Shown here: positions 9,091 to 30,923 of the stretch, piece by piece
How the letters are laid out: each line of letters starts with the position of its first letter
Numbering within the stretch: the stretch's first letter is position 1
Position numbers and translations under genes: made by a program
Notes under the pieces: generated by a model
Database searches by the model: none
Seen by the model: the letters and a program-made list of their open reading frames with translations, nothing else
Told to the model about the DNA's origin: nothing
Assembly (NCBI GenBank): GCA_964386355.1
Contig: CAYLQQ010000003.1
Coordinates: 69,880-133,879, forward strand
From: an uncultured Pseudomonadales bacterium
GTDB lineage: Bacteria > Patescibacteriota > Microgenomatia > UBA1400 > UBA1449
Length of the DNA stretch: 64,000 nt
Direction: 5' to 3'

Positions 9091-9325
9091 CCTACGTGCT
9101 AGCATTGATTGAGATTTACTGTTTTTACATTAGGTTTATAAGTTGAGAGTATGAAGCATACATATTTTCTCTTTAAACTCAAATATGTATACTCTTTAAA
9201 AGTAGTAGTTAAGAATATGGTAAGACGTGAAAGTTTTTGGTTGAAATGGCTCCGAATCTGTTACTCTAAAGATAAGAATTATAATTGATAACCATACTAA
9301 TGTTATTAAACCTATAGTATATAAT

Positions 9326-9757
9326 ATGAGTATAAATGATATAAATAACATAATCATACACAGTGATGGAGGTTCAAGGGGTAATCCCGGACCTTCAGCG
9401 ATAGGATATGTAATTGAACAAAATGGACAGAAAGATACTGAAGAATCTCGTTGTATTGGTTTGGCGACAAACAATGAGGCAGAGCATATCGCCATACAGG
9501 AGGCCCTTAGGTATGTATCAGACAATGGGAGCCTAAAAGCAGAAGTAGATTGTTTCCTTGATTCTGAACTAGTTGTTCGTCAGTTACAGGGTATATATAA
9601 AATTAAAAATGAACGTTTACGTGCAATAGCAGAAAATACATTTAAAATAATCCAAGACATGAAAAATAGGGGCTTTATAGTCCGTTTTACATCAGTTAAG
9701 CGAGAGTATAACGCAAGAGCTGATAGCATGGTTAATAAAGCACTTGATTCTCAATAA
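9326..9757 (+). CDS. rnhA: Ribonuclease HI
   Basis: HSDGGSRGNPGPSAIGYVI, NNEAEHIAIQEAL and ARADSMVNKALD correspond to the RNase H catalytic DEDD-type residues. Confidence 0.8.
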   Translation: MSINDINNIIIHSDGGSRGNPGPSAIGYVIEQNGQKDTEESRCIGLATNNEAEHIAIQEALRYVSDNGSLKAEVDCFLDSELVVRQLQGIYKIKNERLRAIAENTFKIIQDMKNRGFIVRFTSVKREYNARADSMVNKALDSQ

Positions 9758-9855
9758 TCAACTCCATTCCCTTATATTAAAAACAGTTCTTTGATAAAAA
9801 TCGAAGTTTTGTTCTGTTTAAGCTACAATAAGGACATTAGATACTAAATCTGCTC

Positions 9856-12800
9856 ATGCCCAAAAAATTTTCAACAGAATCAAATAATGGAGTTTACTGC
9901 GTAATAGTGGGAAGTGGCGATTTTTTGGGATGTGAGCTTGCACGTCAAATGCTGAGTCAGGGTTGTAGAGTTGTGATTGTGGATGATACCTCTGGAAAAA
10001 CTAATAATAACCTACAACAACTGAAAGAAAATTCAAATTTATCAGTTTTATCCACATCAAATAAAGATTTAGAGATTTTGTTTTCAACTAAACCTGACTA
10101 CATATTTTACCTAGAATTGATTGATTTATATGAACACAGAGATCCTAAGTATATATATCAGGAAACGTATCGCAAATTGGGATTTGAGCGGTACATGAGT
10201 TGGTGTCAAAAAGCTGAAGCAAAACTTCTATTGGGGTGTATTGAATCATTGTATGAAGAAAACGCTTCCTTAGTTAAAGGAAAAGATGTTGGAGATAAAA
10301 CAGAGAGATATTGGGAAATTCAGGAAAAATTTGAATCCCTTGTTTTTGCCTACAGCAAAGCACACGCATTGGATGTGCGTATAGTTCGCATCACGGAGCC
10401 TAGTGGAGCTGGAATGTCCATCGCTTCCAGCAATCCAATTACTAAGTGCTATATTTCAGCCGTGAAACAGGGATGTGTTGAGGTTGTTGGAGATGGAAAT
10501 CAGCTACTATATCCAACCCACATTAGTGACATAGCCTTTGGCATGATAAAGGCTATGTTTTCGCAGAGTTCAAACGGGAAAATGTATGCTCTGGTCAATA
10601 AGGAGGGTTTGTCTTTATTTAATCTCGTAAAATTTATTGAGCAAGCCCTGGGAAAGTCTATACGCATAGTTAACACATTCGAAAAAGAAATTACAGAAAA
10701 ACAAGGATTAACTCAGGCAATGTTGCTTAGTCAGGAAGTGCTTGGATGGTTTCCGCGCTGTAATATTAATACAATCCTACAAAATACGTTTGAGTGGTTA
10801 GGTAAGTCTGTGTCTGTAGACCATCAATATCAACAACCCACCACCCAGACAGTAGCTGAAACTCTCTCTATAAATAATTTACCAATAAAACACAAAGCAT
10901 CTCAAGCAACTGAGGATGGTTATGACTCTAAAAACAGTGACTCTTTTGATAGGATAAATGTTCATAGATTACAAGATGAAGAAGGGAAATTTGATAATCC
11001 CAAGAAATCCCAACCAAACACTGAGCTGCTTATAAACAAAAATTCTAAAAACAAGTTACCTGTGTTTACTATACAGCCGCCAGTACAGATAACCTCACCG
11101 TTTAGTAATGTAATAGGGAGATTGCCTGGCTTTACGGGAATTGCTCATACATCAACCAGGTATGTAATATTTGGCTTTGTGATGATTTTGTTGCTATTTA
11201 TTCTTCCGCAACTACTATTTATAACTGGTTCAAAAATTGCCCGTAATCACAATATTGCAATAACAAACTCACTATTGAAGTCAACCAGCATTAAACCTGA
11301 CTATTGGACAGATTCCATGCTGGTAATGACTGCAGGAAAAATACTGCCATGGGTAGAGTGGCAGCATGCACTGTTTGGTGTTGATACCACACAACAAGCT
11401 GAAGCGTTGTTGGTATACAAAGATCTGCTCGGAGTAGTTTCTGATGCAAATCAGCTTTTTTTACACACTGAGAAGGTTGTGGATGCGATATTTGGACGGG
11501 ATTCAGTAAATATGGTCAATACATTAGATCAGGCAAAACAGAACACGCTGTCATTGTCAGAAAAACTAGCATTTTTAGAAGCTCGCTATAAAAAAAACGA
11601 ATTACAGGACATGTTAGGAAGTGATATTGGGTTACTGAGAGAGTGGAATGTAAATTGGGGTGAAAGCTTAGTTTTGTTGAGCACCAGCATGCTTAGTGAG
11701 CAGCGCAAGATAATTGCTATAGCCATTCAGGACAGTCTTGAACTACGACCAACGGGGGGATATATGGATTCGATCATGTTTTTAACAATCGAGAAGGGTA
11801 AGCTATTGGATGTGCAGGTAAAAAGCGTTGATGAATTGGATGCGTCGTTACAAGGTGTTGTGCAGCCTCCTGATGATATTGCGCCAGTAATTAATGGCCG
11901 CTTAGGAGAGAAACAGTGGTGGCTTCGTGATGCTAATATGTATGCAAATTTTTATGGAAAAAGTGCTCCGCGAATTGCCTGGTTTATTGAAAAAGAGACG
12001 GGGATCAAAGTTAGTGCTGTGATTGCGGTTGACTCTTATTATTTTAAAGATATTTTACATTTGCTTGGCGGAGTATTTATTCCAGAGCTAAATGAAACCA
12101 TTACAGCCGACAATACACTGGAGCGATTATTCAGCCATGCCACATCAGCCATTGGAAGTAATGGAAACAAGCAGACAAGTTTTTTGCAACTGCTTAGTAT
12201 TAGGCTTGTTGAAAAAATAAAATCTATGCCATCTGATCAGGTGATAGGAATACTTCCGGTAATATCTGAACAGGCAAGAAAAAGACATATTATGGTATAT
12301 GATGAATCTTTTATTGATGATGGTCACCAGCTATGGAAAGGAGAAGTGCCAAAAACTATGTCGCAGGTGGTTGAGTTTGGCGATTTGCATATGCCTGGTT
12401 TTATAATGCCCATTGAAGCTAATGTGGGTATTAATAAAAGCAATTATCATATACAAAGAAACCTTGCTGCTAATGTCAAATTGGGAAATACAGGCTCTTC
12501 AGATATACAAGTAAAATATGAATTAAACAATATGAGCCAGACAGAAATGTGGCCATCAGGGAGCTATAAATCCATGGTTTGGTTATATCTTTCTCAAAAT
12601 GCAAACATAAAGAAAGTGGGCGTTACAAATGATAATTTTGAGTACATAGAACTTAAATCAACTGAAATAGAAATAGTTGAAGAGGGTGATAAAAAACGCG
12701 TTGGTTTTTATATTGAGGTACCTCCATTGTCAAAACGTACCATACAGATTGAATATGGCATGGAGGGATCTCAAAAAGATATAAAAAACGTTTCAATGTT

Positions 12801-12972
12801 TATTGCTAAACAATCGGGTGTCGGTGTTATGCCCGTACAGTTAGTGATTGAGTATCCCCCTTTATGGAGACCGGAAAAAATTACACACCAGACAGAGACT
12901 GGCAGTGGATCTTTGAAGCTAGTTAAAGATATTGAAACAGATTTGTTCTTTGCCGTTTCATTTTCTCGATAA
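9856..12972 (+). CDS. Fusion protein: N-terminal NAD(P)-binding epimerase/dehydratase-like Rossmann domain, one TM segment, and a large extracytoplasmic domain containing an LRPTGGYMDS motif (possibly DUF4012-like)
   Basis: VIVGSGDFLGCELARQMLSQGCRVVIVDD matches a GxxGxxG Rossmann fold. A hydrophobic segment follows (YVIFGFVMILLLFILPQLLFI), then about 580 aa of soluble domain. The DUF4012 assignment is from memory of the family motif. Confidence 0.45.
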   Translation: MPKKFSTESNNGVYCVIVGSGDFLGCELARQMLSQGCRVVIVDDTSGKTNNNLQQLKENSNLSVLSTSNKDLEILFSTKPDYIFYLELIDLYEHRDPKYIYQETYRKLGFERYMSWCQKAEAKLLLGCIESLYEENASLVKGKDVGDKTERYWEIQEKFESLVFAYSKAHALDVRIVRITEPSGAGMSIASSNPITKCYISAVKQGCVEVVGDGNQLLYPTHISDIAFGMIKAMFSQSSNGKMYALVNKEGLSLFNLVKFIEQALGKSIRIVNTFEKEITEKQGLTQAMLLSQEVLGWFPRCNINTILQNTFEWLGKSVSVDHQYQQPTTQTVAETLSINNLPIKHKASQATEDGYDSKNSDSFDRINVHRLQDEEGKFDNPKKSQPNTELLINKNSKNKLPVFTIQPPVQITSPFSNVIGRLPGFTGIAHTSTRYVIFGFVMILLLFILPQLLFITGSKIARNHNIAITNSLLKSTSIKPDYWTDSMLVMTAGKILPWVEWQHALFGVDTTQQAEALLVYKDLLGVVSDANQLFLHTEKVVDAIFGRDSVNMVNTLDQAKQNTLSLSEKLAFLEARYKKNELQDMLGSDIGLLREWNVNWGESLVLLSTSMLSEQRKIIAIAIQDSLELRPTGGYMDSIMFLTIEKGKLLDVQVKSVDELDASLQGVVQPPDDIAPVINGRLGEKQWWLRDANMYANFYGKSAPRIAWFIEKETGIKVSAVIAVDSYYFKDILHLLGGVFIPELNETITADNTLERLFSHATSAIGSNGNKQTSFLQLLSIRLVEKIKSMPSDQVIGILPVISEQARKRHIMVYDESFIDDGHQLWKGEVPKTMSQVVEFGDLHMPGFIMPIEANVGINKSNYHIQRNLAANVKLGNTGSSDIQVKYELNNMSQTEMWPSGSYKSMVWLYLSQNANIKKVGVTNDNFEYIELKSTEIEIVEEGDKKRVGFYIEVPPLSKRTIQIEYGMEGSQKDIKNVSMFIAKQSGVGVMPVQLVIEYPPLWRPEKITHQTETGSGSLKLVKDIETDLFFAVSFSR

Positions 12973-13047
12973 ATCTGATAAAATCTACTCTCGAAAATAG
13001 AACTTTTGTATGTTTAGATTTTGGTGTGTAGTAGGGTGATAACCCAA

Positions 13048-13075
13048 CTACTATCTACTATCTACTAACTACTAA
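13048..13075. repeat. Heptanucleotide tandem repeat (CTACTAW)x4 ending 5 bp upstream of the rplY start
   Basis: ctactat ctactat ctactaa ctactaa, read directly from the sequence. Confidence 0.8.
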
Positions 13076-13079
13076 TTGT

Positions 13080-13754
13080 ATGGTTGATAAAATTTCGCTT
13101 ACTGCTCAAAAACGAGAAGTTTTCGGTAGACAGGTAAAAAAACTTCGCAAAGATAAACTGATCCCTGCTAATGTATTTGGAAGCCATATTAATTCAGTGG
13201 CTCTTAGCATATCATTTGACGAGTTTCGGCGCGCATATAGTCAGGCTGGAGAAAGCTCCATCGTGTACCTAGCCATTGAAGGGGAGCCCAAAAACCGTCC
13301 TGTATTGATCAGACCTCCGCAGCTTCACCCAATTACCAGACAGGTTCTACACATTGACTTGCGCCAGGTTAATTTAAAAGAGAAAATTAAAACAATGATA
13401 GACCTGGTTTTGGTTGGGGAAGCACCCGCCCAAACCCAAGGAGCTTTGATTATTCAGCTTAGGGATCAGGTTGAGGTTGAGGCACTACCAACAGATCTGC
13501 CTGAACAAATTGAGGTTGATATTACCAAGCTAGAAAACATTGACGACACAATAGTTGCAAGTGAATTGCAAATAGACCGAACCAAAATAGAAATACAACT
13601 AGAGGACGAAGAGGTAATTGTCAAGGCTGAAGCGCCTAAAGAAGAAGTTGAAGAGGTTGCAGCAGACGAAGCAGCTGCAGAAGGTGAAACAGATGAAGCT
13701 CAGACAGAGCAGGAGAGTGGAGAAAACTCAGAGGAAAAGCCGGCTTCAGAATAA
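13080..13754 (+). CDS. rplY: 50S ribosomal protein L25 / general stress protein Ctc, with an acidic C-terminal tail
   Basis: The N-terminus AQKREVFGRQVKKLRKDKLIPANVFG matches the L25 family. Long E/A-rich C-terminus. Confidence 0.8.
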   Translation: MVDKISLTAQKREVFGRQVKKLRKDKLIPANVFGSHINSVALSISFDEFRRAYSQAGESSIVYLAIEGEPKNRPVLIRPPQLHPITRQVLHIDLRQVNLKEKIKTMIDLVLVGEAPAQTQGALIIQLRDQVEVEALPTDLPEQIEVDITKLENIDDTIVASELQIDRTKIEIQLEDEEVIVKAEAPKEEVEEVAADEAAAEGETDEAQTEQESGENSEEKPASE

Positions 13755-13776
13755 ACATCTAGTGAAAACAAATTAA

Positions 13777-13808
13777 GGGACAAGCTCACAAGGCCTGTCC
13801 CTTTTTTA
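13777..13808 (+). terminator. Rho-independent terminator after rplY
   Basis: GGGACAAG...CTTGTCCC-like stem (gggacaagctcacaaggcctgtccc) followed by TTTTTT. Confidence 0.6.
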
Positions 13809-13826
13809 TGGATAGAGCCAGTTGAT

Positions 13827-14810
13827 TTATTTTGTAGCTACATACTCAGGTGAGTTCCATAGTGGATTTAGCCATTGAGTCTGCTGAAGAGTTGAGTAGT
13901 GTTTTTGTGTATCATACAATTCCTGTTCATAATGAGATTTAAGTGCTAACAGCTGCCAACTATAAGGGTATTTGTCTAATAGTTGGGCAAGTCTAGCAAG
14001 TTGTTCACGTCGTCTCTGAGGAGATTGTAGTAAAGTTTCTGTCTCGTTAAGTGTATTCTTGTATAGCAGCGTACTTATTGGATGAGAAAGTTGTATGTAC
14101 TGTTTAGCTCTTTCAAGCGCTACCCTTGATTCTTCTTCTTGGTTACGTAAAAAATATTGCTTACTTAAGTTAAGCCAGCTACTGGGCAGGGCAGGGTATT
14201 TGTTTATGTTTTTTGTGTAAGGAAATCTTGAATAAAGTTTATTTATATGTGATGTATGGTATGTTTGATTTATAAGCAGTAGGGTTATTATCGTTAAGCA
14301 GGAATAGTACCTCCATCCCCATAATCGACCCGTTACATTTACGCGTTTTCTTATTGTATTCCCAAATTTGAATAACAGTTTATAGTTACTTAATTTGTTT
14401 CGAATGTGTTTTATTGCCCCATAGTGCTTTACTGGTTTTCCATTAAAGCCCGACATAATCACCCTTAGTTTTGGAATGTATGTATCTACTAGTAAGTTAT
14501 GTATGGTATGCAGAATTTGCTTAGGTGTGGTATGTGCTCCAGCCAGTTTGGTATTTTTTGGTTTTACCTGAACTTGTTTGATCTTTTCAATGTTTGTTTG
14601 TGTAGTTTTTGGGGAGTTTTTATCAGTATTGGTAGAACTAATATCTACTGGACTCTCTTGATTGCATGGTTTTACTGGTTCTTTATGTTCATGTGTGATG
14701 GTGCTTACTGTACGTTTAATTATAGAAAATCTATTACGCCATCGTTCTTTCTTTTCTTGGTGTTGCTTGCGTTTCTCTATTAGTTTTCGTCTAGGAGTGT
14801 ATTGTGGCAA
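13827..14810 (-). CDS. Hypothetical basic protein
   Basis: ORF of 327 aa; no motif recognised. Confidence 0.35.
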   Translation of the reverse strand: MPQYTPRRKLIEKRKQHQEKKERWRNRFSIIKRTVSTITHEHKEPVKPCNQESPVDISSTNTDKNSPKTTQTNIEKIKQVQVKPKNTKLAGAHTTPKQILHTIHNLLVDTYIPKLRVIMSGFNGKPVKHYGAIKHIRNKLSNYKLLFKFGNTIRKRVNVTGRLWGWRYYSCLTIITLLLINQTYHTSHINKLYSRFPYTKNINKYPALPSSWLNLSKQYFLRNQEEESRVALERAKQYIQLSHPISTLLYKNTLNETETLLQSPQRRREQLARLAQLLDKYPYSWQLLALKSHYEQELYDTQKHYSTLQQTQWLNPLWNSPEYVATK

Positions 14811-14882
14811 TGTGTATGTTGTAGTTTGTAGGTTGTGAATGTGAGTGTCTAAAACAACCCTACTAACTACTTGGTGTATTAA

Positions 14883-15599
14883 CTATTTACTGTTCCCACC
14901 AAATCTTCTATCCCTTGAAGAAAAATCTCGTAAAATTTCATCAAATTCTTTGATACTAAAATCTGGCATAAGCGTTTTTGTAAAATACAATTCGCTGTAC
15001 TGACACTGCCATGGTAAATAGCCCGAAAGACGGACATCCCCGCCAGTTCTGATAATAATATCAGGGTCAGGCATGTCATACGTATCAAGATATTGGCCAA
15101 AATCACGCTCTGTTAACTGGTTAACCATATCGGGATTAAATTTAGGAGATTGGATCATTTTTTTCATAGCCCTGATTATTTCATCCCTTCCGCCATAGTT
15201 TATGGCAATTGTAACCGTTAGCCGATGTTTGTCGTGAGATCTGTTTTTTAAATTGATTAATTTATTTTGAAGATTGACTGGTAGTTTTGAAATATCACCA
15301 ATGGTATTGAACTTAACCCCAGCTTCTTCATATTTCTGGGTATTTTTATCCAGAGCATAGCCGAGCAAATTAAACAGTTTGTTGACAAACTCCGCCCCCC
15401 GCCTCCAGTTTTCAGTCGAGAATGCCCAAAAAGTAATGTATGGAATACCCAACTCAAGGCTGTGGCAGACTATATTATCAAGGGTTGTATCAACGACGCG
15501 CCTATGTCCTGCAATGCTGGGGAGGTGGTGTTGTTTTGCCCATCGACGGTTGCCATCGACGATAAAGGCGACATGTTTTGGTAGTTGGGAATTCTCCAT
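14883..15599 (-). CDS. uppS: Undecaprenyl diphosphate synthase (cis-isoprenyl transferase)
   Basis: HVAFIVDGNRRWA, ITFWAFSTENWRR and RTGGDVRLSGYLPWQ are hallmark UPPS motifs. Confidence 0.9.
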   Translation of the reverse strand: MENSQLPKHVAFIVDGNRRWAKQHHLPSIAGHRRVVDTTLDNIVCHSLELGIPYITFWAFSTENWRRGAEFVNKLFNLLGYALDKNTQKYEEAGVKFNTIGDISKLPVNLQNKLINLKNRSHDKHRLTVTIAINYGGRDEIIRAMKKMIQSPKFNPDMVNQLTERDFGQYLDTYDMPDPDIIIRTGGDVRLSGYLPWQCQYSELYFTKTLMPDFSIKEFDEILRDFSSRDRRFGGNSK

Positions 15600-15733
15600 A
15601 TGGAGAGCATTATACTGCGCTCATGAAAAAAAAACGACCAAAGTATAAGAAGAGCTAATTAATTAGTTTACGTCAGGCAGTTTATTGGAATTACTTAATC
15701 TTTATATACATAAGATTAAGTAGGGTGTTAGTA

Positions 15734-16120
15734 TCACGGGTTTGATAGTTTTACAGCACCAAAACCCAGGTTGATACCAAAAATAAGTTCCAATAGCTGC
15801 ATAATCCAGTAAGCTAGAAAAATAATGACAAAACCTACTATAGTAGAGGTCATCATAGACTTACCCTTTTGCATCTTGTCCTTGTTTCCAACTGCAGTAA
15901 GTAGGGTAAAACCTGCAGATACAAACAGTACGAATAAAACGATGCCCGCAAAAGCAAAAATGTAGGGAGTAAAAGCTGTGATCATCTGTCCGATTGTTTG
16001 ATTGCTGTTAAACAGGCCTGCGCCAACCTTTGGCAGATCAGCTGGAGCATTATTACCGATAGGATCCGGCACTGGTTTGCCTGGGATTCCCGGTAGTGAA
16101 AAAGCAAGTATATCAGCCAT
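15734..16120 (-). CDS. Small VirB2/TrbC-like pilin-fold membrane protein (TM-hairpin)
   Basis: Two C-terminal TM helices separated by a short charged loop (GNKDKMQKGKSMM). Paralogous to the C-terminus of the adjacent gene. Confidence 0.4.
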   Translation of the reverse strand: MADILAFSLPGIPGKPVPDPIGNNAPADLPKVGAGLFNSNQTIGQMITAFTPYIFAFAGIVLFVLFVSAGFTLLTAVGNKDKMQKGKSMMTSTIVGFVIIFLAYWIMQLLELIFGINLGFGAVKLSNP

Positions 16121-16126
16121 ATGTTT

Positions 16127-17254
16127 TTATCTGCTAAATCCTGGAATTTGTAATATGTCTGTCCCTATGAGTTGGAGTAAAAACACAGAGAATATGATAA
16201 ATACCAAACCAGCTCCTGCGGAAACAAACATCTCTTTACCATTTTTAAGCTTTTCGGGATCACCCGCAGATGTCATGAGTTGAAATGAAGCAAACGCCAT
16301 AAGTAAAAAGGCAATACCACCGCCAAGGCCTATTCCCCATCGAAGCACCCAGCCTATCAATGGAATGGGTTCGTAGGGGATACAACCAAGCGCAGTTTTT
16401 ACACCAGGTTGTGTGGAATCATTATTATAAAAACATGTGTCAGGCTTTATTTTTACCGGAGGACCTTCTGTTGTATTTGTATCCTCAACAGTATCATCTT
16501 CAGGATTACAGACCTCAAGCTTGGTAAATCCGCTTTCGCAGACAATAGAGTCATTATTTTCTAATACTAATTTATGTTGAGTTAGGGAAAGCGAACTGAT
16601 ATCAATTTGTGCGGGAGGGCTTATCGATCCGTTTGATATGTTTACTTTTGTAGCAAAAGCTCTATTATCTATGCGAATAACAAATGGATTGAAAAAACTT
16701 GAATCAACTGGTTGACCCCCCTCTGTAACATTATTGCTAATAACTGTAATATTTTTTGTAGTTAAATCAAAACATGTTTTTGTACCGGCTGCGTTTGTAT
16801 CTGGAGTAATGGTAAGGCTTTCACAGGAGGGATTGACCTGGCCTCGCTTAATCGTATAAAAAGAATGACAAAGTTGTGTGCTACCATCACCGGTATATAC
16901 CCACACTATTCGTTGCCCACTTCTATACCCAAACTCACCAAAAAAGAGTTGTATAGCTCTACTATCAGTGATTGTGACGGGAATGTTATTTTGAACATTC
17001 TGTTCGTAGCGGTTTAGTACGCAGCCATTAATAACGGGATCGCAATTAATTAATACTTTATAAGTTGGCTGTCTTCCGCTGACGGTAAGTTTCATGTTTG
17101 GGGTTACTCGACTATATATTGGATCTGGTTCAACCTGTACTTGGATGTTTGCATCGGCGCATAAAGGGGAGGCATGTATGCGCGAGAGGCTTTCTGTCAA
17201 CAATAAAGTGATGAAGACCAAAGAAATAATAATTCTAACACCTCTTTTAAGCAT
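16127..17254 (-). CDS. Secreted Cys-rich ectodomain protein with a C-terminal VirB2/TrbC-like pilin-fold TM-hairpin; many NxS/T sequons
   Basis: Signal peptide. About 290-aa ectodomain with at least 12 Cys and NITV/NVTE/NISN/NGSI/NDST/NTTE sequons. C-terminal TM-loop(AGDPEKLKNGKEMF)-TM matches the downstream 128-aa protein. Confidence 0.4.
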   Translation of the reverse strand: MLKRGVRIIISLVFITLLLTESLSRIHASPLCADANIQVQVEPDPIYSRVTPNMKLTVSGRQPTYKVLINCDPVINGCVLNRYEQNVQNNIPVTITDSRAIQLFFGEFGYRSGQRIVWVYTGDGSTQLCHSFYTIKRGQVNPSCESLTITPDTNAAGTKTCFDLTTKNITVISNNVTEGGQPVDSSFFNPFVIRIDNRAFATKVNISNGSISPPAQIDISSLSLTQHKLVLENNDSIVCESGFTKLEVCNPEDDTVEDTNTTEGPPVKIKPDTCFYNNDSTQPGVKTALGCIPYEPIPLIGWVLRWGIGLGGGIAFLLMAFASFQLMTSAGDPEKLKNGKEMFVSAGAGLVFIIFSVFLLQLIGTDILQIPGFSR

Positions 17255-17450
17255 ACAATAAACTTAAAACCTTCCTTTGAATAATTAGGATTATTATCTC
17301 ATACTCACTAAAAAAATTGCAGAGGAGGAATATTCGTTGTCCTGCAGAGCTGGATTCCGCTTCGCTCATTGCTTGTTGGTTTTTAGCTAAGAGCTTGATT
17401 TCATAACGTAGGCTTATGTGGATGCGCTACAATAGGAACGAGAGCAATCT

Positions 17451-19235
17451 ATGAACAGAAAGTTACAAGTATCAATTTACAAGTATCAATTTAGAGGCAT
17501 GAAAAGATGTGTCTCAATAATTGCTATTTTGGCGCTTTCCATTACTACTTACTACTTACTACTTACTACTAGTTCTAAAGCTGATGAGTTAGAGGATATT
17601 GGTAAACAAATCGTAGAACTAGAACAAGCTAAAAAGATGAGTGAGGATGCAACTAAACCTCTGGAGATTGAGGCGGGACAGATCGAATTGCGTTTGCGGG
17701 CTATCCAATCGAGTATGGATAGGGCCGCTGAAAATATTAAAAACCTGGAAAAAGATATACAAAAACGAGAAAAAGACCTATCATATCAATATGAATTACT
17801 CTCTATCCGTGCTGAAAACTTATATAAGCAATTGCGCATGCCTAGAGAACTATTAGCTTTCTTTAGTCAGGGATCATTAGGGAGTATTGCCCGCCATTTG
17901 GGGTATCAGCGAGCAGTTGCCAGGCAAGATAAAGATGAAATTATTTCAATTTCGTCAGATTTGACTGATCTTGAGCAGGATAAGCAGAAAGTTGAGCAAG
18001 ACAAGAAAACGCTTGAGAATCTAGGGGAGCGGCTCAAACCCCAACTGGCTTTTTTTCAAAAAGAAATTGAGGGAGCTAAGGCTTACCAGCGCTCACTTGG
18101 GCAAAAAATTACAGAGCTGAGTGTAAAGCAGAAAGAATTATTGGCTAAAAAAACAGAAACATTCCAGACTTCAGTTGGAAGTGTACCTTTAGCTGATGAC
18201 CCTGCTTCCCAACCCGGCTATAACCCAGGATTTTCACCTGCGTTTGCAGCGTTCTCATTTGGTGCTCCCCACTTTAAGGGAATGAGCCAGTATGGTGCGT
18301 ATGGTCGGGCCAAAGAAGGGCAGAGTGTTGAGGATATTCTCAGGGCTTACTATGGGGGTGGTATAGAGATTAAAAAAGATTATGATACCAATATCCAAAT
18401 CAAGGTCGATGGGTATGGTAGTTACTCTTTAGAAGAATATGCCAAGCGGATTTATGAAGTACCAAACGGATGGGGTGATAATGGTGGTATGGCGGCCTTG
18501 CGAGCCCAGGCTGTAGCAGCACGATCGTATGCTTTAGCTCGGACCAATAATGGATCAGGATCAATTTGTGCCACAGAAGCTTGCCAGGTATTCAAACCCG
18601 AGCCAAAAGGAGGCAACTGGGAGCAGGCTGTCAATGATACAAAAGGGTGGGTTTTGATGGCCAATGGGCAGCCATTTTCTGCTTGGTATGCCTCTACGTC
18701 CGGAGGTTATCAGGAAAGCTATAGCCACAATGGTTATAGTACGCCAGGATTTTGGGATACAAAAAATGGCCGTTCAGGATGGACGAACGACGCCTATGAA
18801 AAAATTGGTGGATCGCCCTGGTTTTATAAAGCTTGGTATCGTACCAGGGGAGGGACCACCTGCGGACGTTCCCATCCTTGGTTAAATAGTGATGAGTTTT
18901 CTGATATTGTGAATGCGCTGATTGTATATAAAGCAGATAATGGCACACAAGGACATTTATCTCAGACCGATTCATCCTGTTTTGGCGAATCTATTCCCGA
19001 TACCTGGTCGCGTGAGCAGTTGCGGAATGAGGCCAACAATAGAGGGGGTGCTGTATCATCCGTAAGCTCTGTTTCAGTAACATATAGTAACTCTGGCGTT
19101 ACAGCTGAGGTTGCTGTTGGTACAAACCGTGGCACCTTACGTTTTAGTGGTGATGAATTCTATAAAATATTTAATTTACGTGCTCCCGGAGCCATTCATC
19201 TCACATCAGGATTATTTAATATCGAAAAAAAGTAG
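17451..19235 (+). CDS. SpoIID/LytB-domain protein (peptidoglycan remodelling) with an N-terminal signal/TM segment and a long coiled-coil
   Basis: AQAVAARSYAL and CATEACQVF match the SpoIID/LytB signature. About 200 aa of heptad-like coiled coil at the N-terminus, as in EnvC/M23 activators. Confidence 0.7.
   Translation: MNRKLQVSIYKYQFRGMKRCVSIIAILALSITTYYLLLTTSSKADELEDIGKQIVELEQAKKMSEDATKPLEIEAGQIELRLRAIQSSMDRAAENIKNLEKDIQKREKDLSYQYELLSIRAENLYKQLRMPRELLAFFSQGSLGSIARHLGYQRAVARQDKDEIISISSDLTDLEQDKQKVEQDKKTLENLGERLKPQLAFFQKEIEGAKAYQRSLGQKITELSVKQKELLAKKTETFQTSVGSVPLADDPASQPGYNPGFSPAFAAFSFGAPHFKGMSQYGAYGRAKEGQSVEDILRAYYGGGIEIKKDYDTNIQIKVDGYGSYSLEEYAKRIYEVPNGWGDNGGMAALRAQAVAARSYALARTNNGSGSICATEACQVFKPEPKGGNWEQAVNDTKGWVLMANGQPFSAWYASTSGGYQESYSHNGYSTPGFWDTKNGRSGWTNDAYEKIGGSPWFYKAWYRTRGGTTCGRSHPWLNSDEFSDIVNALIVYKADNGTQGHLSQTDSSCFGESIPDTWSREQLRNEANNRGGAVSSVSSVSVTYSNSGVTAEVAVGTNRGTLRFSGDEFYKIFNLRAPGAIHLTSGLFNIEKK
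17543..17570. repeat. Heptanucleotide tandem repeat (TACTACT)x4 inside the coding sequence of the SpoIID-like gene (encodes TTYYLLLTT)
   Basis: Read directly: tactact x4. Confidence 0.85.
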
Positions 19236-19293
19236 TATTGGTACATTATGTTGAGTTATGAATAGGTAGATTAAATTCTGATATAATATACAT

Positions 19294-19971
19294 ATGGTTC
19301 AAGAAATATACAAAAACCCTTCTTCAACAAAAGCTACCCAGTCAGCAAAGCAATCGTTTCCTCTTAGCCGTACCATGCTTGCCGATCTTGAAAAAGATCT
19401 ACGCCATATGGGTAAAAGTTTTTTTGCTGGTTTTGATAGTTATCCAAAAGCTATTAAATTTGAAAGTCAAGAAACAAAAGAACAGATTATTCTTTTGCTT
19501 CGACGTCATTTTATTACAAATATTCCATGGATTTTAATGGCTGCATTTCTCATTTTTTTATCCTTCCTCTTTCCCTTTTTTGGTGTATTAGAGCTTTTAC
19601 CGGGGCAGTATCAGATGATGACTTACATATTGTGGTATTTATTGGTGGCAGCGTATGTAATAGAAAAGACATTATCATGGCTATATAATGTGTACATCAT
19701 TACGGATGAGCGCATCGTGGATATTGACTTTTACTCGCTTGTCTATAAAAGAATATCTGAGGCAAAAATAGAAAAAATTGAAGATGTAACATATATTCAG
19801 GGCGGATTTATTCAGTCTCTATTTGATTTTGGTACTGTTACTATCCAAACAGCAGCAGAGAAACGAGAATTTGAGATGGAGTTTGTTCCCCAACCATCCC
19901 GTCTGGCAAAAGTACTAAATCAATTAATATTACAGGAAGAACAAGAAAAAATTGAGGGGAGGGTAAATTAA
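19294..19971 (+). CDS. Membrane protein with a bacterial PH (bPH_2/DUF304, YdbT-like) domain
   Basis: Two TM helices followed by ...ITDERIVDIDFYSLVYKRISEAKIEKIEDVTYIQGGFIQSLFDFGTVTIQTA, typical of bPH_2. Confidence 0.5.
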   Translation: MVQEIYKNPSSTKATQSAKQSFPLSRTMLADLEKDLRHMGKSFFAGFDSYPKAIKFESQETKEQIILLLRRHFITNIPWILMAAFLIFLSFLFPFFGVLELLPGQYQMMTYILWYLLVAAYVIEKTLSWLYNVYIITDERIVDIDFYSLVYKRISEAKIEKIEDVTYIQGGFIQSLFDFGTVTIQTAAEKREFEMEFVPQPSRLAKVLNQLILQEEQEKIEGRVN

Positions 19972-19972
19972 T

Positions 19973-20212
19973 ATGGCAAACATAATGGAAACACTTCCTC
20001 CCGAGACAGTTACCGTGGCTTTGTTACTATTAAAACTGATGTATCTTGTTGCAATAGGATTATATGTTGCTTTTGCAGTATTGGTTGTTCGCCAAATATC
20101 ACTAATGACCGGTACTCTTATCAGCTCTTTATCTCAACATATCAAATTAATCGGATTTATCCACCTACTTATCGCAATCGGTGCCTTTATTTTCGCGTTG
20201 GTAATTTTATAA
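19973..20212 (+). CDS. Small two-TM membrane protein
   Basis: 79 aa, hydrophobic, translationally coupled to the upstream gene. Confidence 0.3.
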   Translation: MANIMETLPPETVTVALLLLKLMYLVAIGLYVAFAVLVVRQISLMTGTLISSLSQHIKLIGFIHLLIAIGAFIFALVIL

Positions 20213-20284
20213 ATACGCTTCTTACCAAACTGCAATAATGTAGTTTTTTATCTATTCCGTATACAATGTTTGTAACCCAGCAAT

Positions 20285-22075
20285 GTGGGTTTAATTGTTA
20301 TGCCCATTAATACTACCATTATCCATGGCCTAAAAGAGCAGTTAACTCAAAACCAAACTAATCAATCTCATACAATTGTTGAGTGGCACGAGGCTACTCA
20401 GCGGTTTGTGAGTGTTGAAATGCAACCTTTGCTGTATGGTTTGGATATCACTTCGTATGCAAAACAAATAACTGCTCAATTACAGGCTTCAATTCCAACG
20501 TTTACTCAACTTGTATCTTGGCTGTCTGGCATAGACCCAAAAGTAGTTAAGTGTTCCGTATTAGTAGGACAATTTAAGCAAAAGGGTAATGAAATGCATA
20601 TGGAACTGCAATCATCTACACCGCAAATGGTTTTATTAAAGAGAGGTAGGGAGTTGTATCAGATGATTATTACTGCGGAAGGAGTTTCAGGCACATTCGT
20701 TGCAGGTGATATGTTACTAGCCGGCAACCAGCATATGCTTGAGCGTATAAAATCCATTTCTCAATCGGAGATTGAAAAGCTACAAGCGCTAATCGAAAAC
20801 CTTTCTAAAGCATATCAATTATCCAGCAAAATTATCGTAATGGAAAGCTTCAAGAAGAAGATCAGTCCCCGTGCTCTAATGTGGCTTAAAAGGACAACCT
20901 CTAATCTAATATCAAGAAAAAATATATCAAGTCCTTCAACACTTGTTCCTGATATTTTGCAACGAAAACCAATACTATTGGATAAAAGAAGAAAATATGC
21001 CCTCATTCTATCAATCGTATTTTTAATGCTGCTTACAACTAGTGTTGGTTTGGGTATTTCCAAGCGTCAGCAGTTTATGAAATCTCAAAAAGAGCAACAG
21101 CTTATCGATAATGTACGTTACCGGCTGGAGCAAGCCAAATCACTAGAGCAACTCAACCCAGCAAGAGCTAAGGTGCTGCTTACGGAAGCAAGGCAGGCAT
21201 TGCAAGCGTACAAAACTGAAAACCAGCTATCTTCGCAAATGGTGCAAAATCTAGACCGTGAGGTAGCTCTTGCGTATGAACTTGTATCCGGTCTCATTTT
21301 AGTACAAGAGGTGCCCCAGTATTTTGACCCACTTTTGATAAAAGATGTATTTATACCAACACAAATGACACTTTCAGATGATGAAATAAGTCTATTGGAT
21401 ACATCAAATAAGATTGCAGGAACAGTCTCTTTGGAGTCAAAATCATCTAAAGTGATTGCAGGAAGCTCAGTAATACAGTCAAATTCGAGGATTGCATCAG
21501 TACCAACTTGGCTGTTTCTACTATCAGGAAATAAGCTATCAGTTGTTGATAAACTGAGCCAAAAACAGATTAAGAGCTTTACTCTGTCAAAAACTGAGGT
21601 GTCTGATCTGGTTGGGTATGGGAATAATTTGTATGTTTTGGATGTGCTAGCCGGTCAAGTATTGCGGTTTAGGGGGACCAAAGATGGTTTATCAAAATCT
21701 GAGGAATTTTTTAACGAGCAACAAGACCTAAGTGGGGCGGTAGGTATATCAGTGGATGGGTCTGTTTGGGTGTTATACAAAGATGGTTCACTGGAAAAAT
21801 ACACAAGTGGTTTGAGGGACGCCCTTTTTCCCGATTTTGGTTTGGATAAACCAATACAAGAAGCAAGTTATATTTTTACTGATGAAAATCAAAAAGATGT
21901 ATATATACTAGACAAAAAACAGGGAAGGGTTATTGCTGTAAGCAAGCGCGGTGAATTTGTAGCTGAGTATAGCTGGGAAGGCCTTAAAATGTGTGATGAT
22001 TTTGTCGTATCCGAGGCAATCGGTAAAATTCTGGTCTTAAAAGATGGTAAGATATGGGGAATTGGGTTAAAATAA
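20285..22075 (+). CDS. Hypothetical single-pass membrane protein with a large C-terminal domain
   Basis: 596 aa with a TM around residue 250. No motif recognised. Confidence 0.4.
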   Translation: MGLIVMPINTTIIHGLKEQLTQNQTNQSHTIVEWHEATQRFVSVEMQPLLYGLDITSYAKQITAQLQASIPTFTQLVSWLSGIDPKVVKCSVLVGQFKQKGNEMHMELQSSTPQMVLLKRGRELYQMIITAEGVSGTFVAGDMLLAGNQHMLERIKSISQSEIEKLQALIENLSKAYQLSSKIIVMESFKKKISPRALMWLKRTTSNLISRKNISSPSTLVPDILQRKPILLDKRRKYALILSIVFLMLLTTSVGLGISKRQQFMKSQKEQQLIDNVRYRLEQAKSLEQLNPARAKVLLTEARQALQAYKTENQLSSQMVQNLDREVALAYELVSGLILVQEVPQYFDPLLIKDVFIPTQMTLSDDEISLLDTSNKIAGTVSLESKSSKVIAGSSVIQSNSRIASVPTWLFLLSGNKLSVVDKLSQKQIKSFTLSKTEVSDLVGYGNNLYVLDVLAGQVLRFRGTKDGLSKSEEFFNEQQDLSGAVGISVDGSVWVLYKDGSLEKYTSGLRDALFPDFGLDKPIQEASYIFTDENQKDVYILDKKQGRVIAVSKRGEFVAEYSWEGLKMCDDFVVSEAIGKILVLKDGKIWGIGLK

Positions 22076-22131
22076 CGGGAACAATAGCCATTTTGCCATT
22101 TTATATAAGAAGAAATTGAGTACAAACGAAT

Positions 22132-22569
22132 ATGAAGATTGTGAATAAATATGCAAGTTACGAATTTCAACTTTTTGACCGTTTTGAAGCTGGTATTGTT
22201 CTTATTGGGTCAGAAGTAAAAAGTGTCAAGCTAGGACGGGTATCATTAAAAGATGGCTTTGTAAAAATTGTTGGTGGAGAGCTATTGCTGCTTAATGTTC
22301 TGATCTCTCCTTATTCATTTGCTGATAACGAAAAGTACGAACCTAAACGGACCCGCAAGCTGCTCATGCACAAAAGCGAGATTCTGAAACTTTCCCAAAA
22401 ATTGGATACCAAACGCATGACGCTAGTTCCGACTGCTATGTATGTAAAGCAAGGAAAAATTAAAGTTGAAATAGCTTTGGCAAAAGGGAAAATGGAATTT
22501 GAAAAACGGGATGCAATCCGCAAGCGCGACCAGATGAGAGAGCAAGAAAAAATACTGAAGAGGTTTTAG
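22132..22569 (+). CDS. smpB: SsrA-binding protein
   Basis: FEAGIVLIGSEVKSV...KIVGGELLLLNVLISPY...KRTRKLLMHK matches the SmpB family. Confidence 0.9.
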   Translation: MKIVNKYASYEFQLFDRFEAGIVLIGSEVKSVKLGRVSLKDGFVKIVGGELLLLNVLISPYSFADNEKYEPKRTRKLLMHKSEILKLSQKLDTKRMTLVPTAMYVKQGKIKVEIALAKGKMEFEKRDAIRKRDQMREQEKILKRF

Positions 22570-22638
22570 GTGATAGGTTATAGTAGGGAACGAAAACTTT
22601 CGTTATAGTTTGTTGGGATGATCAGCAACTTGCCCATT

Positions 22639-23154
22639 TTATTTCTTTAAATCAACAGCATTTACAATGCAGACTTTACCAATATTTCTTTTCATTAGTT
22701 CAATCGCGTCTTGATGGAATTTGAGCCCATGGTGTGAAGCGCATAGGTCTTCAATAACTTTCACATTATGATCTTTTTCAAATGCTGCAAATGCGCTGGC
22801 AAGAACACATGCGTCAGTGTCAATTCCGCACAGGTAGAGCTCAACATCTTTCTTATTTGCAAGATACCTAACAAATTCATCTGATCCGAATATTGAAAAT
22901 GTATGTTTATTAAACGTGTGATGCTTGTTGGCATACGGAACTAACTCAGAAGCCAGTTCGACTTCTTTGCCATGCATCATATGGTTCCAAGCGAAAAGTT
23001 TAACAAAGTTAGAATTGGGATGATTTACGTACTGGAAGAAAACAACATCATTAAATACATGGGCTTCTATGCACTCTGCAATAGCCTTGGGAAGATGTAT
23101 TGTATGATCGTTTAGAAAATAGGTTTGGACATCAACAACAACCAAGATCTTCAT
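22639..23154 (-). CDS. Isochorismatase-family cysteine hydrolase
   Basis: MKILVVVDVQTYF and LCGIDTDACV (catalytic Cys) motifs. Confidence 0.65.
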   Translation of the reverse strand: MKILVVVDVQTYFLNDHTIHLPKAIAECIEAHVFNDVVFFQYVNHPNSNFVKLFAWNHMMHGKEVELASELVPYANKHHTFNKHTFSIFGSDEFVRYLANKKDVELYLCGIDTDACVLASAFAAFEKDHNVKVIEDLCASHHGLKFHQDAIELMKRNIGKVCIVNAVDLKK

Positions 23155-23192
23155 GATGATAGTTTATTAGTTTATATTCACTATACAAGACT

Positions 23193-23417
23193 TTAATTCC
23201 TAAACACAAAACCAGAATTTGTCTTTAGATATTTTTCAAAATCAAACGCTTTCTTCTTGGTTTCAAACGCAGCATAGAAAACCAATTCGACAGGTCTTAG
23301 GTTTTTTGTATGACTTACAAATTCTTGGCAATGTTCTTTAATTCTATTTTCCAAATTTGTAGAGAAACCGTGATAATAAGATCCGTTTGCTAATTGAAGA
23401 ATATATGCATAATACAT
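23193..23417 (-). CDS. GIY-YIG domain protein (UPF0213/YhbQ-like); likely start at the internal Met
   Basis: YYAYILQLANGSYYHGFSTNLENRIKEH matches the GIY-YIG core. The listed ORF extends to 23495, but its upstream part overlaps the region downstream of the tmRNA. Confidence 0.55.
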   Translation of the reverse strand: MYYAYILQLANGSYYHGFSTNLENRIKEHCQEFVSHTKNLRPVELVFYAAFETKKKAFDFEKYLKTNSGFVFRN

Positions 23418-23576
23418 GCTTTTACTAAGTTTGAAGTACACAAAATGTACTAAAAGGCAGTCCCACTTCACTTTAAAAAGCTTCGCGGAACACACTCCGC
23501 ATCAATGATCACACTAATACGAAAAATAAGAGTGGCCTGCCACGCGAAGCACTTTCTGTTAAGAAAGTGCGGAGTG

Positions 23577-24002
23577 TGGAGATGGGGGGAATCGCACCCC
23601 CGTCTAGCTTTGACTTCTCAATCGTCTACACACGTAGTTTGCTAGTGTACTGAAAAGATGATTAGCAAACGACTCATGTCTTTTCAGTTTAGCCTAAATT
23701 TGATTCCGCTTGGCAATTACGGAACTACACCTATCGTTTGGTTTCACCCACAATCGACTCCGATAAGAAAAGTTATTGTGAATGTCCTTAGAAGCAATTA
23801 AGCGTATAAAGCATTAACTACTGGTCTTTGGAAACTGGCAACTGTTTCGCGGATACTTTCTTTGGCATCAGCTACTACTCGTTGAACTCCAGTTTTGATG
23901 ACGCGTACGTCAGCATTTGTGTTTTGAAATTGTTTTACGACTACATTTCAAAGTCGGTGTGCAGATTTTCAAAGAACAAAACTGTCGAATCTAGGCATCC
24001 CC
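23577..24002 (-). ncRNA. ssrA: tmRNA (transfer-messenger RNA)
   Basis: The reverse-complement 5' end GGGGATGCCTAGATTCGACAG parallels the canonical GGGGCUGAUUCUGGAUUCGACGGG. The 3' end ...GACGGGGGTGCGATTCCCCCCATCTCCA forms a T-arm plus acceptor that pairs with the 5' GGGGATG, including a G3:U70 wobble. The gene lies about 1 kb from smpB and CCA is not encoded. Confidence 0.7.
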
Positions 24003-24079
24003 ATGGTTTGAATTTCCACACTCTATTATACTGGATGGTGTCAAATATTACTTATGTAAGTAAATTGTGGTTAATTTTT

Positions 24080-24781
24080 ATGTTACTGAGTTTGTTGCAC
24101 CTCATTTTCCCTCCTATTTGCCTCTCATGCGATCGATTTGGATATTTTATATGCCCCACATGCCAAAAGGATATGAGTAAGCTCAATGGTTTCATTTGTC
24201 CTGATTGTCTCAAGGTTTGTCCTGATGGTAATCTTCACAACTCATGCAGGGGTAGTGTCGATGGGCTTATTTCCTGTTGGAATTATGAAAAAGTAACGCA
24301 AAAAATTATCAAAGAAATTAAGTACCGGTTTTACTATGCCAGCATAAAAGAATTGATACATAGATTTATAGGACAGAGACAAACATCACAACCGTTTGAA
24401 GCATTTCTTGAATCAAAACCTCTTATCATTCCGATTCCTCTTCATCCAAAGCGCTTGGGTTATCGGGGATTTAATCAGGCTGAATTAATTGCCAGAGAGC
24501 TTCAAAACGCCTGGCAATTAGCCATTAGCACGAAAATACTGATCCGTACAAAATACACTAAACCTCAGGCAGAGCTGACCAAACAGGAGCGAATGCTTAA
24601 CACTAAAGATATGTTTACAGCTAATCCAAAACTGCTCAAATTAGGCGAAAAACCGCTTGAGGGCAGAAATATACTCTTAGTTGATGACGTCTGGACTACA
24701 GGTTCTACCTGTCAGGCATGTGCTAAAGTACTAAAAGGTTTGGGTGCCGAGAAGGTATGGGTGGTAACAGTGGCGAGATAA
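24080..24781 (+). CDS. comFC: ComF-family protein (phosphoribosyltransferase domain, competence protein ComFC-like)
   Basis: N-terminal Cys cluster (CLSC...CPTC...CPDC) and C-terminal PRTase motif ILLVDDVWTTGST. The start is moved to the internal ATG at 24080 because the upstream part of the listed ORF (23828-) overlaps the tmRNA gene. Confidence 0.7.
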   Translation: MLLSLLHLIFPPICLSCDRFGYFICPTCQKDMSKLNGFICPDCLKVCPDGNLHNSCRGSVDGLISCWNYEKVTQKIIKEIKYRFYYASIKELIHRFIGQRQTSQPFEAFLESKPLIIPIPLHPKRLGYRGFNQAELIARELQNAWQLAISTKILIRTKYTKPQAELTKQERMLNTKDMFTANPKLLKLGEKPLEGRNILLVDDVWTTGSTCQACAKVLKGLGAEKVWVVTVAR

Positions 24782-24784
24782 TAA

Positions 24785-25009
24785 CTACTCAGTTATTCGA
24801 AGATATGTAGCTATTCCCCATAGTAAACCTGCAAAAATATAATACAAACAGTATTTAGTAGAATCTTTACCTGTAATTTCAAGCATAGTGGATACATGTT
24901 TGTCGTACCACCACACTCGTTTCTGAACTAAACCCATTGCACCTATACCTAACAAAAAGATAGTTACGAGTATGCTTCCGCTAAGTAAAATTAAGTATAT
25001 TATGCTCAT
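24785..25009 (-). CDS. Small two-TM membrane protein (hypothetical)
   Basis: ORF of 74 aa, hydrophobic. Confidence 0.25.
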   Translation of the reverse strand: MSIIYLILLSGSILVTIFLLGIGAMGLVQKRVWWYDKHVSTMLEITGKDSTKYCLYYIFAGLLWGIATYLRITE

Positions 25010-25020
25010 AAAATAATCTG

Positions 25021-25103
25021 CGGAAGGGGCGAGATTCGAACTCGCGAAGCTTTCGCTTGCCGGTTTTCAAGACCGGTGCACTCGACCACTATGCGACCCT
25101 TCC
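25021..25103 (-). tRNA. tRNA-Ser (anticodon UGA), class II with a long variable arm
   Basis: Reverse complement GGAAGGGTCGCATAGTGGTCGAGTGCACCGGTCTTGAAAACCGG...GCGAGTTCGAATCTCGCCCCTTCCG folds as a cloverleaf. Anticodon loop CTTGAAA. Confidence 0.85.
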
Positions 25104-25400
25104 ATCAAAATTTCTTGCTTACTGCATTATTTAAACTTACTGATTTGACCACTACCCTGTTGTATTAACAACAGGGCGGCCTGTTCCTATCGGAACATGC
25201 ACGGTGCGACCCTTCCAGATATCCAATTTTCCGAACTTTTCTATCAAACAATCGGATTTGACCACTATACTAAAACTTTCAGTTTCAGCAAGATCTCTCT
25301 GTGCTTTGCACAAAATAGATGCGGTACGATTCTTCCCTGATGTGCTATTTTAACCCGAAACGGACAACTTTTCATCTTGGGTTATCGGCTCAATTTGTGC
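25104..25400. repeat. Three degenerate direct-repeat units, each containing a copy of the tRNA-Ser 5' end (tgcgacccttcc) and ending in gatttgaccac
   Basis: Unit ...ggtgcgacccttccagatatccaattttccgaacttttctatcaaacaatcggatttgaccac at 25203-25265 is about 95% identical to 28938-29003. A weaker copy gcggtacgattcttccctgat is at about 25320. Confidence 0.5.
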
Positions 25401-30398: not shown

Positions 30399-30923
30399 AT
30401 GGACACAAGGGAAGAATTTTCTGCTGGTGGTGTAGTATACGCGTACCAACAACCAACAACCAACAACCAACAACCTATTTTTCTTCTGGGTAAACATTCT
30501 GGGTATCATAAGTGGGTTTTACCGAAAGGGTTAATCGAGCAAGGTGAAAAACCAGAAGAAACAGCTGTGCGGGAAACGGAAGAGGAGATGGGGGTGGTAG
30601 CAAAACTGGCAAAACCTGATCCTATACATATAGAAAGATACTCCTACACTGCTGACTATAAAATACCCCTGGATATTTCACTGCAGACATCACAAAGCTC
30701 ACGGAGAGTAAAGAACTATCAGGAAACTGGTGGAAGTGGAGTGTTAGTCAATAAAACAGTTACGTTATATCTTATGGAGTGGGTGAGCGGTGATCCCCAA
30801 AAAGATCATGGTTGGGAAATGGAAGAAGCAGGATGGTTTGACTACAAAACCAGTCTTGAGATGATGGGGTTTGAGGGGGAGAAGAAAGCACTAGAGAAAG
30901 CAATGGAAATTCTTTTAAAATAA
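30399..30923 (+). CDS. NUDIX hydrolase
   Basis: Nudix box GLIEQGEKPEETAVRETEEEMGV. The start is placed at the ATG at 30399 (MDTREEF), immediately after the upstream gene's stop. Confidence 0.75.
   Translation: MDTREEFSAGGVVYAYQQPTTNNQQPIFLLGKHSGYHKWVLPKGLIEQGEKPEETAVRETEEEMGVVAKLAKPDPIHIERYSYTADYKIPLDISLQTSQSSRRVKNYQETGGSGVLVNKTVTLYLMEWVSGDPQKDHGWEMEEAGWFDYKTSLEMMGFEGEKKALEKAMEILLK
30448..30475. repeat. Heptanucleotide tandem repeat (AACAACC)x4 inside the NUDIX coding sequence (encodes QQPTTNNQQP)
   Basis: Read directly: aacaacc x4, preceded by a partial acc. Confidence 0.85.

Follow-up and report, generated by a model that had tools for sequence, protein, structure and literature searches.

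A heptanucleotide array in the signal-peptide region of a Microgenomates SpoIID-like gene is probably a tolerated, slippage-prone microsatellite

Introduction

The CTCTT repeat tracts of the Neisseria opa genes are long, vary between strains and within clones, and leave most gene copies OFF at any time. Heptanucleotide tracts are known from Haemophilus influenzae, where TGAAAGA lies upstream of hmw1A and hmw2A and AACAACC at the gene for a TonB-dependent receptor, with 1 to 38 units between strains and with frameshifted alleles observed (PMC2651432). More generally, heptameric simple sequence repeats (SSRs) are over-represented in many bacteria, and a polymerase-slippage hypothesis has been put forward for them (Mrazek et al. 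2007, as cited in PMC4692102); the same paper lists GGGAATC in Xanthomonas, GGGGA(C/T)T in Nostoc and the cyanobacterial heptanucleotide repeats of Calothrix, and four units is the mode for the Xanthomonas SSR (PMC4692102). In the literature that we searched, we found no report of heptanucleotide repeats in bacteria of the candidate phyla radiation (CPR). Here we describe a (TACTACT)x4 tract in a SpoIID/LytB-like gene of a Microgenomates-group CPR bacterium (~39% GC), carried on a stretch of 64,000 nucleotides (nt) from contig CAYLQQ010000003.1 (assembly GCA_964386355.1, positions 69,880 to 133,879, forward strand), hereafter the window. A first-pass annotation of the window had proposed the tract as a frameshift switch for phase variation. 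We consider it probable, short of firmly established, that the tract is instead a heptameric microsatellite, prone to slippage but tolerated in the signal-peptide region, and one member of a lineage-wide class of such arrays.

Results

The tract lies among the following features of the window:

17543..17570, + strand: perfect (TACTACT)x4 heptanucleotide array, encoding TTYYLLLTT
17451..19235, + strand: SpoIID/LytB-like gene for a secreted peptidoglycan hydrolase of 594 amino acids (aa), or of 578 aa if translation begins at the alternative in-frame start, 17499
17499..17582, + strand: signal-peptide-coding segment (MKRCVSIIAILALSITTYYLLLTTSSKA), the last ~40 nt of which are homologous to a heptamer block of ~6 units found in all five clade members
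17463..17493, + strand: perfect 14-nt array x2.2 (TTACAAG TATCAAT, i.e. two diverged heptamers), directly upstream of the TACTACT tract
17421..17433, + strand: GATGCGCTACAAT box, conserved across all five clade species

Sequence checks, Tandem Repeats Finder (TRF) and Pfam bear out the tract and its gene as first annotated: the array is in frame within the open reading frame (ORF), its period-7 run continues without mismatch over 17542-17570 (TRF, 4.1 copies with 100% matches), the tract region encodes I-TTYYLLLTT-SS, and the SpoIID domain (PF08486) is matched with E=1.4e-12 and 48.5 bits vs. a gathering cutoff of 23. Of the two candidate starts, ATG 17499 lines up with the start of the relatives in a MAFFT alignment, and 17451 (ATGAACAGAAAG) resembles their MNRK/MNKK start and is used by public gene calls; the tract is coding and near the 5' end with either, at 44-92 nt from them. 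Judging by sequence features alone, from which the signal peptide was called, the tract would lie between the hydrophobic core VSIIAILALSI and a predicted cleavage site between SKA and DE. The array at 17463-17493 is leader DNA, or an N-terminal extension if the start is 17451; in the latter case it falls within 48 nt that are inserted in frame behind codon 4 and that the relatives lack. The gene belongs to the highly conserved core, with 4502 homologs, named ones coming from Beckwithbacteria, Roizmanbacteria and the 'Patescibacteria group', and type IV secretion pilin genes lie on either side of the locus. Its nearest relatives (P-numbers denote relatives, L-numbers related loci) are P0001 at 94%, P0002 at 85%, and P0003 and P0004 at ~73%.

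The mechanics of a switch are present at this perfect, non-triplet SSR. In silico, alleles with 2, 3, 5 or 6 units run into a stop after 19-51 aa, in both alternative frames, so that a one-unit change costs the full-length product, as the first-pass annotation had anticipated, and alleles with 1 or 7 units (a 3-unit change) keep the ORF open. These properties speak for a true contingency locus, that is a slipped-strand ON/OFF switch for a secreted SpoIID-like hydrolase in the manner of opa, maybe within a wider CPR 'phasome'; the presumed lifestyle fits as well, CPR bacteria being thought to be small-genome episymbionts, a lifestyle in which contingency loci are common. However, we regard a contingency locus as unlikely, as the comparisons yielded neither unit-number variants nor OFF alleles, as evidenced by: 1) a metagenome-contig search with exact flanks and a variable middle of 2-6 units returned 0 matches with variant unit numbers of the TACTACT tract; 2) the 594-aa protein is recorded in NCBI and Logan, with a 90% cluster consisting of itself and P0001 and containing no length variants; 3) 0 unit-number changes were seen in the comparisons between near-identical or 96-98% identical orthologous loci, and the arrays of the P0003 species are identical in five samples, although the 100%-identical pairs probably include few independent samples and minority alleles are masked in consensus assemblies; 4) among ~155 SpoIID orthologs with a complete 5' end, 0 lack an in-frame start and a hydrophobic N-terminus; and 5) in silico changes of +/-1 unit at ~70 arrays revealed no convincing OFF allele. 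The window species itself is represented by one strain: protein look-ups led only to an identical genome, the Logan contig L083, which matches window 9294-25253 at 100%, and the genome and metagenome contig collections contain nothing nearer than 61%.

Several apparent OFF candidates were rejected. Those labelled intergenic by a crude ORF caller are in-frame signal peptides or true leaders, and the candidate at L104 3878 is the junction of two adjacent genes, out of frame in the orthologs too. Four units is also short compared with the 6-38 units of documented phase-variable heptanucleotide tracts (PMC2651432), and the strong conservation of this core gene likewise counts against a switch. The evidence for a working switch is thus absent from these comparisons, and a non-triplet repeat in the 5' coding region is insufficient to call phase variation.

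The history of the tract in its clade points in the same direction. All five clade species share a 7-nt periodicity, in one and the same register, over the final ~42 nt (~6 units) of their signal-peptide DNA, with lag-7 identities of 18-28 of 35 vs. at most 11 at lags 5, 6, 8 and 9. The signal peptide takes up 84 nt in the window and 87 nt in each of the other four species. The arrays read as follows:

Window: CTACTTA x3, perfect (TTACTAC unit)
L167: CTACCAC x3.6, perfect (YTACCAC unit)
L002: TCACAAC TTACAAC TTACAAC CTATAAC
L164: the unit of L002 (TTACAAC), more decayed
L001: TAATTAC TAATTAC CAACTTC TAACTAC

The array is degenerate in three of the five species (L001, L002 and L164) and the block stays static at 42 nt; tract purity and mutability are therefore not maintained, contrary to what a contingency locus would lead one to expect. 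The position of the block is conserved and its unit is species-specific: all units of a given species have the same base at position 5, namely T (window, L001), A (L002, L164) or C (L167). As successive units fall into each of the three codon phases in turn, this single change is enough to rewrite the peptide, giving YYLLLTT, YNLQPIT and YHLPPTT. Such parallel changes cannot be explained by selection on the protein; the array is therefore homogenized at the DNA level, in a case of concerted evolution that slippage or conversion appears to drive. Similar behavior was noted elsewhere, as L018 (AGGAGAG) and L006 (AGGAGAT) differ in every unit, and the array of L151 is perfect where that of L142 carries three substitutions within the tract between identical flanks. 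The turnover implied by concerted evolution may also be counted in favor of a contingency locus. A reading of the AGGAGAG/AGGAGAT arrays upstream of SpoIID in L018, L023 and L006 as tandem Shine-Dalgarno sequences was rejected, since they encode signal-peptide sequence of a pilin-like gene that is transcribed divergently.

The 5' leaders of the clade carry heptamer arrays of their own, which lie in every member between the conserved box and the ATG, and here L002 and L164 differ by exactly one AGAACTT unit, which L002 lacks. Together with the turnover of units in the clade, this step suggests that slippage or conversion occurs on evolutionary time scales; outside reading frames it seems to alter the number of units, and inside them only their sequence.

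The GATGCGCTACAAT box may be a -10-like promoter element. A sigma-70 consensus scan of the + strand upstream of the SpoIID gene gave no match, and the GCTACAAT box is therefore only a putative -10 element. As a separate observation, two samples of the P0003 species differ from the rest next to the SpoIID leader array (L170, ~300-440, and L166, 1216-1280): one lacks 36 nt, and with them the conserved CATGCGCTACAAT box, and the other is interrupted at this site by a scaffold gap of 65 N. The population may be heterogeneous here, or the assembly may break at the promoter/leader. A TAGTAGGGT motif shared upstream of two leader arrays was discarded, as there are 3 exact copies in the window and the one-mismatch count is not clearly above chance.

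The tract belongs to a much larger set. The 160 loci gathered around SpoIID orthologs were reduced, by removal of near-duplicates, to 131 loci with 1.86 Mb of related Microgenomates DNA, in which an array was called at 19 or more of 21 periodic matches. Period 7 accounted for 54 arrays, period 8 for 16, period 14 for 5, period 9 for 4 and periods 12 and 15 for 2 each, with 0 at periods 4-6, 10, 11 and 13; three replicates of the triplet-shuffled 1.86 Mb gave 0 arrays at any period. Counts of perfect repeats agree in the dominance of period 7. The arrays of period 7 span 28-42 nt, with 6 units as the maximum. Their mean density is 29 per Mb, and all 54 fall in 25 of the 131 loci: some lineages are array-rich, that of the window among them, and most are array-free. 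Units are diverse across loci and species and mostly A/T-rich, although some recur within a genome, e.g. TATTCAG at several sites of the Collierbacteria L007 and L039. The longest array across the loci is of period 8, CCATGAAG x8 over 65 nt at L091 15050-15114, and lies outside ORFs of at least 80 aa.

The window itself holds three to four heptamer arrays in its 64 kb. The two further tracts that the first-pass annotation had named, (CTACTAW)x4 upstream of rplY and (AACAACC)x4 in the NUDIX gene, are both real, and the arrays apart from those at the SpoIID gene are:

13048..13075, + strand: heptamer array of CTACTAT x2 and CTACTAA x2 in the 5' leader of rplY (L25), 4 nt upstream of the ATG at 13080
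30445..30475, + strand: (ACCAACA)x4.4 array in the NUDIX gene (30399-30923), 46 nt into the gene
14813..14836, - strand: degenerate heptamer array (ACAACCT ACAAACT ACAACAT ACA), ending 1 nt before the TTG start at 14810 of a 327-aa gene

The claim that such tracts exceed chance held up, in that, of the periods 2-15 scanned for perfect tandem repeats in the window, 7 is the only one with a unit of more than 2 nt to reach 4 copies. Chance, or an assembly or sequencing artefact, is accordingly an explanation to which we give almost no credence. It can draw on the general caveat that the sequences are metagenome assemblies, and against it stand the perfect periodic run of 29 nt vs. 0 arrays in shuffles, the occurrence of the identical sequence in a separately recorded Logan assembly, and the presence of in-frame arrays in conserved genes in NCBI, JGI, ENA and Logan assemblies from many lineages.

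The placement of the arrays is far from random. ORFs contain 41 of the 54 period-7 arrays; 27 of these 41 lie at most 150 nt from the first possible start and 1 at most 150 nt from the stop, where ~20% would be expected at random for each zone (binomial p=1.7e-10), and the N-to-C deciles hold 17, 9, 3, 0, 1, 2, 7, 1, 1 and 0 arrays. All coding arrays are in frame. Most N-terminal arrays encode part of a signal peptide, with the form M-K/R...hydrophobic...A before the cleavage point, and signal peptides account for ~17 of the 27 near-start arrays. Those of SpoIID recur in distant lineages, with period 7 in L144/L047, L148, L157, L094, L105 and L002 and with period 8 in L086, L091 and L154. Orthologous secreted proteins encoded beside pilin-like genes likewise carry arrays at the same signal-peptide position in L104 (462-499, GTACTAT) and L044 (1585-1622, TTCTACT), a pair that mirrors SpoIID in combining different units with one position.

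Both the lineage-wide N-terminal bias, which is a signature of phase variation by the argument of PMC3315296, and the recurrence of SpoIID signal-peptide arrays add to the case for a contingency locus. In its broadest form, this case would make the 5'-end heptamer arrays of Microgenomates genome-wide contingency loci (a 'phasome'), with the N-terminal bias and the concerted evolution as footprints of ON/OFF slippage; we judge this improbable. Similar arrays sit in loops of essential cytoplasmic enzymes (UppS and a TsaD-like protein), which counts against a switch. The same surface loop of UppS (undecaprenyl-diphosphate synthase) bears arrays with different units, heptamer or octamer, in six lineages (L007 at 7545, L030 at 7374, L039 at 7210, L067 at 8763, L081 at 7943 and L091 at 6395); this loop is 38 aa long in most orthologs and 39, 42, 42, 52 and 72 aa in those array-bearing orthologs in which it is measurable (Mann-Whitney U test, p=4.5e-4). 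One and the same kinase loop carries arrays in L043 and L059, a TsaD-like protein does so in L056, and the NUDIX tract of the window lengthens an N-terminal loop by 3-5 aa compared with the orthologs. Taken together, the arrays are in-frame expansions wherever the protein tolerates them.

A different account would take the arrays as cis elements at gene starts, acting at the DNA or RNA level as promoter-start spacers or a rheostat, as unstructured initiation regions or as hairpin arms, with coding incidental. The gene-start cluster, which spans about -75 to +130 of start codons, fits such elements, with true leader arrays abutting the start codon in L079, L043, L060 and the rplY gene of the window, as do the leader arrays of the clade between the -10-like box and the ATG, with their one-unit shift in leader length. 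The SpoIID tract region is not more structured than shuffles (z=+0.8 and -0.1), as an unstructured initiation region would have it; the array at 14813-14836 forms the 3' arm of a 15-bp hairpin with the upstream GTAGTTAGTAGGGTTG (window 14813-14880, minus strand; z=-2.68); and heptanucleotide repeats upstream of the H. influenzae hmw genes modulate expression (PMC2651432). Against this account, units vary widely by locus and species and there is therefore no common binding motif; some arrays, such as those in the UppS and kinase loops, lie deep within genes; the hairpin at rplY falls short of significance (z=-1.44); and the SpoIID tract matched no Rfam family. On balance we hold a cis-element role to be doubtful. 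The hairpin at 14813-14880 lies just past the UppS stop and could be a terminator or a leader structure, and the rplY leader holds a weaker analogue of it.

A few observations stand apart from the above. The NUDIX tract has the unit AACAACC, the same as a documented phase-variable heptanucleotide SSR of H. influenzae (PMC2651432), most likely by coincidence. A full-length group I intron lies at 49773-50086 of the window (+ strand; Rfam RF00028, 96 bits), around which ARAGORN found no tRNA gene, and no rRNA match was reported within the window. An ordinary tmRNA gene is located at 23574-24002 (- strand; Rfam, 94 bits), ~1 kb from the SmpB gene.

Discussion

The TACTACT tract is probably the presently homogenized state of an old array of ~6 units, located where the signal peptide of the SpoIID-like protein passes from its hydrophobic core to the cleavage site. 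Short period-7 arrays of 28-42 nt, along with a smaller number of period-8 arrays, form a lineage-wide population in the genomes of Microgenomates-group CPR bacteria, and the tract belongs to it. Such arrays would arise and re-homogenize through slipped-strand mispairing or intra-array conversion, and would persist only where almost any sequence is tolerated, as in 5' leaders, signal peptides and surface loops, with purifying selection acting against total lengths that break the frame. Slippage by one unit would amount to a SpoIID null mutation, which would make the tract a local frameshift hotspot and a liability rather than a demonstrated regulated or selected switch. We further postulate that arrays may be born in leaders, where single-unit steps are free, and be captured into ORFs upon a shift of the start codon. 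With slippage at ~1e-4 to 1e-6 and large populations, double events may pass through short-lived deleterious intermediates, in which case a viable OFF state would not be required.

Some of the data sit uneasily with a tolerated microsatellite. The 27:1 asymmetry between N- and C-terminal arrays exceeds what simple structural tolerance would give; signal peptides explain ~17 of the 27, though not all, and Lin & Kussell (PMC3315296) take just this asymmetry as a signature of phase variation. SpoIID signal-peptide arrays occur in ~11 of 131 orthologs, possibly above the frequency in other secreted proteins, a rough estimate with uncertain denominators. In addition, homogenization of a coding array by single units implies frameshifted intermediates, and the preference for period 7, sometimes 8, is not accounted for by the data. 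Even so, we still favor a tolerated microsatellite over a contingency locus or cis elements.

For the SpoIID gene, the message is one of caution, as the comparative data fit a tolerated microsatellite better than phase variation. The Microgenomates arrays, which are far denser in some lineages than the mean, provide a natural test system for the polymerase-slippage account of the heptamer excess in bacteria. By creating in-frame insertions in signal peptides and enzyme loops and evolving in concert, they are also a source of protein-length variation in minimal genomes. If reads proved to be heterogeneous at these arrays, contingency loci would for the first time be indicated in CPR bacteria.

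How the tract is placed among known systems depends on the features compared. Like the CTCTT repeats of Neisseria opa, it is a non-triplet SSR that encodes part of the leader peptide of a secreted protein, where a change of unit number shifts the frame and aborts translation; in contrast to opa, it has four units, neither variation nor OFF alleles were found, and the gene is a conserved single-copy hydrolase rather than a member of a multigene adhesin family. With the heptanucleotide loci of H. influenzae it shares 7-nt units upstream of or inside ORFs, and their leader/promoter placement resembles that of the leader arrays described here, whereas the inter-strain range of units and the frameshifted alleles of H. 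influenzae were not seen. The heptameric SSRs of other bacteria are mainly intergenic, with one conserved G-rich unit per genome, while the present arrays lie about three quarters within ORFs, have diverse and mostly A/T-rich units, at most 6 per array, and reside in a CPR host. They nevertheless resemble those SSRs in the excess of period 7 over neighboring periods at many loci, in lineage restriction, in a mode of ~4 units and in the differences in length and sequence of the same locus between related species, for which polymerase slippage has been proposed as the cause.

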